UHGV virus genome: UHGV-0209830
Length of the DNA stretch: 59,500 nucleotides
Direction: 5' to 3' (one strand)
From: a virus
In this document: positions 32,265-34,461 of the stretch, in pieces
Position numbering within the stretch: the stretch's first letter is position 1
How the letters are laid out: each line of letters starts with the position of its first letter
Program-made: the position numbers and the translations under genes
The notes under the pieces: model-generated
Seen by the model: the letters and a program-made list of their open reading frames with translations, nothing else
The model's database searches: none
Told to the model about the DNA's origin: nothing

Positions 32265-32298
32265 ATGTTAGAAAATCAAAATTGATTTTCTAACACAA
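32265..32298. promoter_or_regulatory. Near-perfect palindromic operator-like site (gttagaaaatcaa-N-ttgattttctaac) in divergent promoter region
   Basis: Best palindromic copy of the dispersed motif. Confidence 0.55.
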
Positions 32299-32464: not shown

Positions 32465-33103
32465 TTGCGTAACGTTCCTGGGGAAACTTTGATGTCAAAA
32501 CGCATTATGAAAATTTACATCGCGGGGCCGATGACTGGTTATCCCGACTACAACCGCACAGCGTTTTTTTCGAAAGCAAAAGAGCTGATGGAGGTAGGGC
32601 ATATTGTTCTGAATCCGGCGCTGTTACCTGCTGGCCTCTGCGAGAGCGAATACATGGATATTTGCCTTGCAATGGTGCGTTCGGCTAATGCGGTCTATTT
32701 GCTCAAGGGGTGGGAGGAATCAGTTGGCGCTCGTGCAGAGCACGAGCTGGCTCAAAAGCTGGGGCTGAATGTAATTTATGAGTCACCAACCAACATTGAA
32801 TGCCAGGTTGCTCCGCATATTTACCGGGAACTGGTCAATGCACTGCGTGATATCGCTGCTGTATATCACGGCACAGAACAGCTTCGTGAGCGCTTAGCCC
32901 ATACCATTTCCTATTACCTTTCTTTATCTCATGAGCACAAGCTCCGCCAGAAGGTAATGATCAAATTTATCATGAGGTTATCGAAATCCCTGGCAAACGC
33001 CGATCCAAAGAATCCATTACCGAAAGAGGCAATGAATTACCTGAAGTCCTGCAACGTTGTTTCTGAAGATGGCGTTCTTTTGGTTAGAAGGAGTTCTGCG
33101 TGA
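32465..33103 (+). CDS. DUF4406-like (nucleoside 2-deoxyribosyltransferase-like fold) protein
   Basis: N-terminal MKIYIAGPMTG...NR.AF...A..L...G..V.NPA pattern; likely start at MSKRIM (about 32492). Confidence 0.45.
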   Translation: MRNVPGETLMSKRIMKIYIAGPMTGYPDYNRTAFFSKAKELMEVGHIVLNPALLPAGLCESEYMDICLAMVRSANAVYLLKGWEESVGARAEHELAQKLGLNVIYESPTNIECQVAPHIYRELVNALRDIAAVYHGTEQLRERLAHTISYYLSLSHEHKLRQKVMIKFIMRLSKSLANADPKNPLPKEAMNYLKSCNVVSEDGVLLVRRSSA

Positions 33104-33417
33104 GCTGGCGGGGATGGGGAAGGGCAGAAATCATGATACTCCGCCAGTGCGCCGGGACTATGACAGTCGAGGGTATTGGGAGACTGATCGGGCGTACCGG
33201 TGGTGCTGTCAGGACTAAAGCGCGGGAGTTGGGGATCAGCATGATTCTGAAAGGAGACTTTCATCCGTCAGCCAAATACCGGCAGAGCGATATAGAACTG
33301 GCACGGCAGCTTCATCAGTGTGGTGTTCCCCGCCGTGAGATCGCAGAAAAACTCGAAATGCCCCTGGGAATGATTAATCAGTACGTTTATTTCGAAAGGA
33401 GAGTGTATGAAGTCTGA
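33100..33417 (+). CDS. Small HTH DNA-binding protein
   Basis: Two HTH-like segments. Confidence 0.45.
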
Positions 33418-33763
33418 AGGTTTAACGCCCGCACAACTGGCAGAGCGTAACGCTGAATTACTCAGGATTACCCAGGAAAAAGCCTTCCACATACTCGAAC
33501 GATTAGAGACGCTCTCTACGGAGGAGGAGATATCCCCGGAGATGCTGGTTGAGTGCAGCCGTGTGATATTGCGTCGCAAGAACGACATCGCGCGGCTGAC
33601 ATCTGGCGCACTATCCGTATCAGCCAGTCCAACGCTTTATTGCAGCTTCTGCAACAAATCCCAGCACACCGTTAAAAAGTTAATTGCCGGGGACAACGCT
33701 TTCATATGCAACGAGTGCGTGAAAGATTGCAACAACATTATCCAGGAAGATCAAAGGGAATAA
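33407..33763 (+). CDS. Protein with C-terminal ClpX-type C4 zinc-binding domain
   Basis: [38 protein letters not shown] closely matches recalled E. coli ClpX N-terminal ZBD. Confidence 0.7.
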
Positions 33764-33765
33764 GC

Positions 33766-34461
33766 ATGAAATTTTCCAAATTTTCTGAGTTGGTGAATCG
33801 TATTTTGTCCAACAACCACAGCCATCGTCGCGATATGGATGTAACGATCGTTGTTCATTCGCCTGGCAGCATTGGTTCAACACCTTCAGTTGAGGTTCAG
33901 TCAATTCACGCTGGTTTTGATTGGGATTCCGGGAAAGTGCTGATTTTCCCAGCACAGCCACTGACCACGCTAACACCAGAACAGATTACTGATATTACTG
34001 ATAGTGTGCGCAAAGGTCAGTCCTGGCACGCATATCAGGAATACAAGAAGCATAAAGAGCAGTTGGAAAAATTATCGATTGAACTTGATGCCGCAAAACA
34101 GCGCATTGCAGAGCTGGAGGGTAATTGCGCGGCGCTGGCGGCGGAGAATGCGGGAATAAAGTCTGCAATTCCAGAATCACGGGATATTGAGGATGACAAT
34201 GACAATATGGATGACGTATCTCTCGCGGAAGACTTCGGGTTCAATCATGCAATAGAACGGATGAGGAGACAGATACCTGAAACGCCAACCACTGATGCTT
34301 TCCTGGCTGAAGTCCGGGCGCAGGGATTGGAGATGTTTGCACAGAAATGTAACTCAAAATCCGAACAGTCGCTTGCATCTGATATACGCGATAACTGGAA
34401 ACTACTCGGTGAACATGCAACTGACTTTGCCGATGAGCTTCGAAGAGGAAGCAGCAAGTGA
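33766..34461 (+). CDS. Hypothetical protein with coiled coil (about 231 aa)
   Basis: Track ORF 33706..34461 trimmed to MKFSKF; shares ETPTTDAFLAE motif with ORF 37345..38043. Confidence 0.45.
   Translation: MKFSKFSELVNRILSNNHSHRRDMDVTIVVHSPGSIGSTPSVEVQSIHAGFDWDSGKVLIFPAQPLTTLTPEQITDITDSVRKGQSWHAYQEYKKHKEQLEKLSIELDAAKQRIAELEGNCAALAAENAGIKSAIPESRDIEDDNDNMDDVSLAEDFGFNHAIERMRRQIPETPTTDAFLAEVRAQGLEMFAQKCNSKSEQSLASDIRDNWKLLGEHATDFADELRRGSSK

Follow-up and report, generated by a model that had tools for sequence, protein, structure and literature searches.

Whether lambda O, MuA, RpoS, UmuD', and several antitoxins persist is decided by ClpXP, as is the fate of one or more anti-phage toxin–antitoxin–chaperone systems. 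Tampering with host AAA+ proteases is a known phage strategy, in which T4 PinA and T7 Gp4.5 act on Lon and lambda CIII acts on FtsH. Furthermore, T5 Gp00X drives ClpXP degradation of RpoS (PMC11806420), ClpS is encoded by phages (PMC7824862), and SPO1 Gp53 acts on ClpCP (PMC6873191). The N-terminal domain (N-domain) of ClpX, a zinc-binding domain (ZBD), is the docking site for SspB, RssB, other adaptors, and substrates such as lambda O (PMC7804408, PMC10755785, PMC9963277). Its residues F16 and I46 lie in a hydrophobic side pocket; the lambda O-binding site and the region of this pocket overlap, and SspB, RssB, and trigger factor bind to that region too (PMC7804408). Here we describe a gene of the virus genome UHGV-0209830, a D6-like (P1-type) phage-plasmid, analyzed as one stretch of 59,500 nucleotides (the window). 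The gene encodes a protein of 118 amino acids that carries a ClpX-type ZBD. We read it, at chances that we would put a little short of even, as a mimic of the ClpX N-domain that would perturb N-domain-dependent selection of substrates and adaptors by ClpX(P) early in lytic growth. Such a protein would resemble the phage modulators named above in being a small early protein that blocks or redirects a host protease, whereas none of them copies a domain of its target protease and none is related to it in sequence.

The open reading frame (ORF) runs from ATG to TAA on the plus strand, at exactly the coordinates (33407–33763) given in a sequence-only reading of the window that had been made without database searches. 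That reading had also named a ClpX-type zinc-binding domain, and this is borne out. Pfam family PF06689 (zf-C4_ClpX) matched residues 78–114 with E=2.2e-17 and 63.1 bits, well beyond the gathering cut-off of 27 bits, and was covered from model position 2 to 39 of 39. The top solved-structure matches were the E. coli ClpX ZBD entries 1OVX and 2DS5–2DS8 (E about 4e-14). The zinc ligands C79, C82, C101, and C104 are arranged as CxxC-18-CxxC. To call the domain "nearly a copy" of its ClpX counterpart was an overstatement of a clear homology, as 26 of 40 residues (65%) are identical to residues 11–50 of E. coli ClpX. No second ClpX-type zinc domain is present in the window.

An AlphaFold2 model of the whole protein, built on a family alignment of 19 sequences, had a mean predicted local distance difference test score (pLDDT) of 78 and a predicted template modeling score (pTM) of 0.34. 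It consists of a low-confidence helix (residues 8–19), a helical hairpin (23–39 and 44–65), a disordered linker (66–76), and the ZBD (77–117). The low pTM fits two independently mobile modules, and the model contains no confident inter-domain contact. The modeled ZBD superimposes on 2DS5_A at an rmsd of 0.5 Å over 38 residues (TM score on the target, 0.85) and is predicted to adopt a treble-clef fold of β-hairpins and a C-terminal helix. The similarity to the ClpX N-terminal domain therefore comprises sequence, C4 spacing, and predicted fold, whereas the phage protein is devoid of the AAA+ module and its ZBD is C-terminal, behind the hairpin, instead of N-terminal. A genuine ClpX unfoldase was rejected as an identity on the grounds of the missing AAA+ module and the length of 118 residues; the NCBIfam models TIGR00382/PRK05342 scored 40–45 bits against cut-offs of 359–371 and matched at model positions 5–49 alone.

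For a residue-level comparison, 27 distinct ZBDs of the phage protein's family were aligned with 23 distinct genuine ClpX N-termini, mostly from other lineages; positions are given in ClpX numbering. Almost all ZBD positions are invariant in genuine ClpX. In the family, the four zinc ligands are conserved in all 27 sequences, and C14, F16, C17, K19, G30, I35, C36, E38, C39, V40, and C43 are invariant, with L12, S15, I28, V33, N44, and I47 nearly so. Position 42 is hydrophobic in 24 of the 27 members and position 46 remains hydrophobic. The state N44 of E. coli ClpX is found in 26 of 27 members and varies among ClpX in general. On a helical wheel, from which we assigned the helix faces ourselves, the C-terminal helix has a conserved face (39/40/43/44/47), with the variable positions 41, 42, 45, 46, 48, and 49 opposite. 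The conserved face is compatible with dimerization.

The ZBD looks like a capture from host clpX, more than a like fold, because basal family members share 78–83% identity with the E. coli ClpX ZBD and carry its S32/Y34 state, of which Y34 occurs in none of the 23 sampled ClpX sequences. The Bacillus subtilis anti-sigma factor CsfB (Gin) illustrates the difference: it is a dimeric treble clef resembling the ClpX N-terminal domain with only ~20% identity to ClpX (PMC5890618), and it has no Pfam cross-match here. Since fold likeness alone goes along with so low an identity in CsfB, the phage domain appears to be clearly ClpX-derived. The domain may have been acquired from host clpX on several independent occasions, for which the evidence is weak. 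The copy in the T4-like Caulobacter phage Cr30 has methionine at position 44, as do 7 of the 23 sampled ClpX sequences, a residue that we take to be typical of alphaproteobacterial ClpX; E. coli ClpX and the enterobacterial phage family have N44.

The N-terminal 70 residues had been described as unrelated to ClpX. Searches of Pfam, of structures, and of 1.84 billion representative proteins agree, although the region is not a single unit and falls into a leader (residues 1–20), the hairpin (21–66), and a linker (67–76). Residues 1–73 gave eight matches in the representative proteins, each of which is a family member or a copy broken by truncation or frameshift, and the hairpin thus appears to occur solely fused to the ZBD. 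It had no fold match in the PDB or in BFVD, a set of viral predicted structures, where the ZBD alone was matched. An origin of the hairpin as an Ea22 fragment was rejected, as BLASTP against the neighboring Ea22-like and other proteins returned just the 17-residue leader shared with orf91 of phage D6. Within hairpin helix 2, residues 51–58 (SRVILRRK, window 33557–33580; CRVMLRRK in most relatives) form a conserved basic-hydrophobic stretch, which we would loosely liken to the ClpX-binding tail of SspB (...ALRVVK). The stretch could dock into a ZBD pocket within or between molecules, or the likeness could be due to chance.

The leader points to a mosaic origin. Orf91 of D6, whose product is Ea22-like at its C-terminus, is not a zinc-finger gene; the zinc-finger gene has its true homologue in D6 in orf93, which, like most family members, begins with MTTSHSAIT in place of the leader. 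Because residues 1–17 match the start of orf91 and the homologue proper is orf93, the ORF is an in-frame recombinant of an orf91-type leader and an orf93-type remainder (regions compared: window 33407–33466 with phage D6, L001, 4308–4664 and 5329–5649). Relative to D6, the body of orf91 and orf92 are missing in the window, and many plasmid matches start only at nucleotide 61 of the ORF. The overlap of the leader with the upstream gene may explain why the coupled junction was kept.

In PHROG 6797 (function unknown; E=3.6e-51, residues 16–117 on profile positions 3–104 of 107), phage D6 orf93 and phage P88 gp19 are full-length homologues with the same build of hairpin, linker, and ZBD. The window copy differs from the other members in its 20-residue recombinant leader and in ending two residues early. 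The family is already named in databases (by PGAP); the combination of a hairpin with a C-terminal ZBD and no ATPase is uncharacterized, and our literature search turned up no work on ClpX zinc fingers that stand alone in phages. Full-length relatives are all from Escherichia or Salmonella and share a hairpin consensus, the Ser/Ala-rich linker, and the ZBD. Among the complete E. coli genomes, 131 of 5426 (about 2%) contain close DNA relatives; 144 of the 150 matching places are on plasmids, some of which bear two copies. The genes flanking the window gene match phage D6 and many non-mobilizable E. coli and Salmonella plasmids of ~90 kb. Since its slot holds another gene on some D6-like plasmids, the zinc-finger gene is accessory there.

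Outside these plasmids, the gene is found on phage-plasmids of ~108 kb, beside metG in one integrated element, and in P2-like prophages as well as in cultured phage P88, where it lies 3' of replication gene A and a ParM/partition pair and 5' of the portal gene. The hairpin-ZBD gene is thus shared by three different, mutually unrelated kinds of temperate element, in which it occupies early or accessory regions; this distribution points to a host-directed function that is not replicon-specific. Free-standing ClpX-type ZBDs were also found in a 65-residue ZBD-only protein of a Pseudomonas Detrevirus, beside replication and nin-like genes, in an unannotated ZBD-only small ORF of Pantoea phage PdC23 (L019, about 2500–2660, between gp57 and gp58), and in Cr30 (L017, about 1501–1725), where the annotation is truncated. 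The ZBD itself looks like the useful unit, because free-standing copies recur in unrelated phages (P88, Cr30, Detrevirus, PdC23).

A perfect palindrome between ref and the plus-strand genes (Table 1) is probably a repressor operator governing the operon of the zinc-finger gene. With up to two mismatches allowed, the window holds 14 copies of its half-site GTTAGAAAAYYAA, where 1.9 would be expected, and these are mainly in intergenic positions ahead of operons. By analogy with the C1 operators of P1, these half-sites are probably the dispersed operator of a D6-type immunity repressor; the P1 C1 operator itself was rejected, its consensus being absent from the window. Because the palindrome is read as an immunity-repressor operator, the operon would be off in the lysogen and on early in lytic growth.

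The N-domain mimic that we tentatively favor would have arisen when phages took the ZBD from enterobacterial clpX and fused it, by way of a flexible linker, to the C-terminal side of a helical hairpin specific to phages. Upon lytic entry of the phage-plasmid, the protein would be produced from the operator-controlled early operon, and the ZBD, probably as a zinc-stabilized dimer, would interfere with the N-domain-dependent branch of ClpX function, namely the recognition of adaptors (SspB, RssB) and substrates (lambda O, MuA). As the N-domain docks adaptors and substrates, a surplus of free ZBD should compete for these ligands, and reportedly the isolated ZBD binds lambda O and SspB (work by Wojtyra et al. 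in 2003 and Thibault et al. in 2006). A free decoy would be the likeliest route. The sequence-only reading had proposed that the protein could heterodimerize with ClpX to block or redirect ClpXP, which is plausible; the ClpX N-domain dimer, however, is said to be very stable (again Wojtyra et al. in 2003), so that exchange into existing ClpX hexamers during infection, and with it a capping of the ClpX N-domains, appears less likely than a free decoy. As a result, some of ClpXP's substrates, whether phage proteins, host regulators, or antitoxins of defense systems, would be spared or re-prioritized. Candidates include lambda O-type phage replication proteins, RpoS, and (chaperone-addicted) antitoxins whose degradation by ClpXP triggers abortive infection; the E. 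coli anti-phage system CmdTAC requires ClpXP for activation. Of this scheme, the analysis shows the identity of the domain, its predicted fold, the intact ligands, purifying selection, an architecture conserved across three kinds of temperate element, and the position in the operon; we infer dimerization, contact with ClpX or its partners, expression timing, and the affected substrates.

A known domain would thereby join a known strategy, and receptor-domain mimicry would be the hypothetical new part. In the literature that we searched, we met no phage protein with a demonstrated action on E. coli ClpX through imitation of the unfoldase's substrate-receptor domain, and we know of none. If the mimic is real, it would account for the recurrence of free-standing ClpX zinc fingers among phages of several bacterial phyla and would provide a natural, genetically encoded tool that blocks only the N-domain branch of ClpXP. 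The family is small, easily expressed, and present in the cultured phages D6 and P88, and simple experiments could show whether proteolysis is tuned via domain mimicry.

Some of the sequence data speak against a faithful mimic. Ten positions that are invariant or nearly so in ClpX, and lie on its surface, vary in the family (G18, H22, E23, K26, P31, F/Y34, L42, D45, I46, and E49), and the window protein has K106-D107 (K41/D42) where ClpX has D/E41-L42. The variable face of the helical wheel bears the pocket residues 42 and 46; the pocket anchor F16 is retained and the helix side of the pocket appears to be diversified. The pooled ratio of nonsynonymous to synonymous differences per site (pN/pS; Nei–Gojobori, seven crown-group genes) was 0.61–0.67 for the ZBD and 0.37 for the hairpin; with small counts and non-independent pairs these values give a tendency only, namely that both modules are under purifying selection, the ZBD less so. 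In a faithful decoy, one would not expect the ZBD to be less constrained than the hairpin. Contact of the protein with ClpX or its partners is so far a prediction. The N-domain is dispensable for degrons that the ClpX pore recognizes, such as the ssrA-like AA tags at the C-terminus (as in CmdA), and a decoy would therefore not spare such substrates. The variable pocket face and the tighter constraint on the hairpin lend themselves to a serious, though somewhat less probable, rival explanation in which the ZBD is a mere scaffold, a compact zinc-stabilized dimerization module. A target unrelated to ClpX, such as a sigma factor, a regulator of the host, or a further phage protein, would then be bound by the hairpin or by a retuned surface of the ZBD, with CsfB as the model. 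The hairpin would then be the more constrained part, as the pN/pS values suggest, and the surface that is invariant in ClpX could diverge around a conserved zinc site, a conserved core, and one conserved helix face. CsfB shows that the dimeric fold can work outside the Clp system (PMC5890618), the ZBD is fused to sigma factors in cyanobacteria (PMC11119718), and the rare proteins P0025 and P0029 join the ZBD to other N-termini. Such a scaffold is harder to reconcile with an identity to ClpX of 65–83%, as opposed to about 20% for CsfB, with ZBD-only phage proteins that have no second domain to dimerize, and with the invariant F16 and the mostly hydrophobic position 42.

The conserved helix face and the near-constant N44 would also suit a hijacking adaptor, whose ZBD forms mixed dimers with ClpX N-domains and whose hairpin delivers a host or rival-phage protein to ClpXP for destruction, which corresponds to the redirecting variant of the sequence-only proposal. 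Two modules on a flexible linker are typical of tethering adaptors, the ZBD of the family carries varied N-terminal modules, tethering to the ClpX ZBD suffices for degradation (CLIPPERs, PMC12373786), and phage ClpS and T5 Gp00X are precedents. We nevertheless consider this unlikely: the target of the hairpin is hypothetical, the helix face forming the dimer interface is itself inferred, and the stability reported for the ClpX N-domain dimer makes exchange within an infection cycle doubtful. Somewhat less likely still is a viral adaptor that mimics a subunit, in which the ZBD pairs with host ClpX N-domains and the fast-evolving pocket face, or else the hairpin, takes hold of a host protein of immunity or regulation, so that ClpXP is reprogrammed to destroy it; the ZBD-only versions of other phages would then be plain decoys, and the protein would be the first case of a bacterial virus hijacking a protease by imitating the protease's own receptor domain. 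It is very unlikely that a decoy made by the prophage protects the lysogen by withholding ClpX N-domain function from superinfecting phages, e.g., Mu-like phages that need transpososome remodeling. In P2-like prophages the gene does sit between gpA and the portal gene, a slot that holds tin and old in P2. However, PADLOC gave no match for the protein or its neighbors, the P88 gene is co-oriented with and directly 3' of early lytic genes, and the window gene lies behind a probable operator and would be repressed in the lysogen. Protection of the antitoxin Phd, offered in the sequence-only reading as one purpose of the protein, was not supported, and a protein dedicated to shielding the plasmid's Phd from ClpXP is the most improbable of the explanations weighed here. 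Phd of P1 is a ClpXP substrate and related plasmids bear phd/doc about 8 kb downstream, but P88 has the gene without phd/doc, some D6-like plasmids carry another gene in its slot, and stabilized Phd would weaken post-segregational killing.

The features of the locus are compiled in Table 1. Gene order is ref (minus strand), followed on the plus strand by genes for a DUF4406 protein, a helix-turn-helix (HTH) protein, the zinc-finger protein, an Ead/Ea22-like protein, a DUF4752 protein, two small ORFs, and a ppp-like phosphoesterase. As the stops and starts of the plus-strand genes overlap or abut and no convincing terminator was found between them, these eight tightly packed genes form one operon. 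A Shine–Dalgarno sequence, read directly from the DNA, lies 5 nucleotides upstream of the ATG of the zinc-finger ORF, the first 11 nucleotides of which overlap the 3' end of the HTH gene; the overlap suggests that the two are translationally coupled. The Ead/Ea22-like gene begins 2 nucleotides past the stop. Relatives of the protein end in ...QEEQRESA and run into the start of the next gene. In the window, positions 33758–33768 differ and the codon aligned to Ser119 is TAA, which shortens the protein by two residues and uncouples the overlap with the next gene.

Table 1. Features of the zinc-finger gene and its surroundings in the window
Feature	Position	Strand	Basis or remark
Perfect 13+2+13 palindrome GTTAGAAAATCAA-AA-TTGATTTTCTAAC	32267..32294	.	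Between ref (minus) and the plus-strand operon; putative operator
Small HTH gene, upstream	33100..33417	+	Weak Sigma70_r4_2 match; PGAP name "DNA-binding protein"
Shine–Dalgarno sequence AAGGAG	33394..33399	+	Strong site; direct reading of sequence
Coding sequence, hairpin + ClpX-type ZBD, 118 residues, PHROG 6797	33407..33763	+	PGAP name "ClpX C4-type zinc finger protein"
Residues 1–20, mosaic leader	33407..33466	+	First 17 residues equal D6 orf91 start; pLDDT 55–57
Residues 21–66, family-specific helical hairpin (helices 23–39, 44–65)	33467..33604	+	Alignment, model
Residues 67–76, Ser/Ala-rich flexible linker	33605..33634	+	pLDDT <50 at residues 69–72
Residues 77–117, ClpX-type C4 ZBD	33635..33757	+	Pfam, structure match, Cys ligands
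Ligand codon C79	33641–33643	+	Within ZBD
Ligand codon C82	33650–33652	+	Within ZBD
Ligand codon C101	33707–33709	+	Within ZBD
Ligand codon C104	33716–33718	+	Within ZBD
Ead/Ea22-like coiled-coil gene, downstream	33766..34461	+	Pfam PF13935, E=3.7e-9

Further positions of the half-site include 12962, 22888, 29641, 29688, 31636, 35994, 45008, 46331, 46420, 50853, and 57005.

An Ead/Ea22-like gene is adjacent to the zinc-finger gene, or one gene off, in most contexts examined (loci L002–L013 and the window). The protein itself has no Pfam match to that family (PF13935), and membership was rejected. In P0025 and P0029, an Ea22-type coiled coil (...AAENAGLK) is joined straight to a ZBD of the zinc-finger family, with the junction in the region of the linker. 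As the hairpin has no detectable Ea22 similarity, we regard the two genes as joint members of a pool of accessory genes that recombine. The motif AALAAENAG(L/I)K resembles a recombination hotspot common to several genes of the region.

Many records (P0002–P0024, D6 orf93, P88 gp19) carry the label "carboxylate--amine ligase". Nothing in the Pfam, NCBIfam, or structure searches backs this name, which we regard as a propagated misannotation. Membership of a toxin–antitoxin pair was likewise rejected, the sole hint being phrog_4681 at E=0.12, with no toxin gene as a neighbor. The defense and anti-defense models of PADLOC-DB gave no match at E≤0.01 for the protein and eight neighboring proteins (window and P2-like locus).

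ClpXP adaptors and anti-adaptors (IraP/IraM/IraD, SspB, RssB) share with the phage protein the proposed effect, an altered access to ClpXP via the N-domain route. They are unrelated to it in sequence and bind as ligands, whereas the phage protein would imitate the receptor domain.

In the P2-like phages (L002–L010, L020/L021), the segregation pair right after gene A is of the ParM/StbA type. Such a pair is uncommon among integrating P2-like phages; its type is that of the partition module found on D6-like plasmids. Gp170 of Cr30 is annotated from the middle of the ZBD (start "LIASVN…"), so that the CSFC half is omitted. Free-standing ZBD proteins are diverse not only in phages but also in bacteria. 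Metagenomic proteins (P0028, P0030, P0032, P0037, and similar ones) contain tandem ClpX-type ZBDs or a ZBD with a second zinc ribbon, and a separate metagenomic group combines a basic leader, a ZBD, and a C-terminal domain of ~90 residues. The close relative plasmid NZ_CP122910.1 (L014) carries, besides phd/doc, a full-length glnS (glutamine--tRNA ligase), rdgC, and HigB/HigA. It also encodes an S24 (UmuD/HumD-like) peptidase; ClpXP degrades UmuD' in a manner dependent on the ClpX N-domain.

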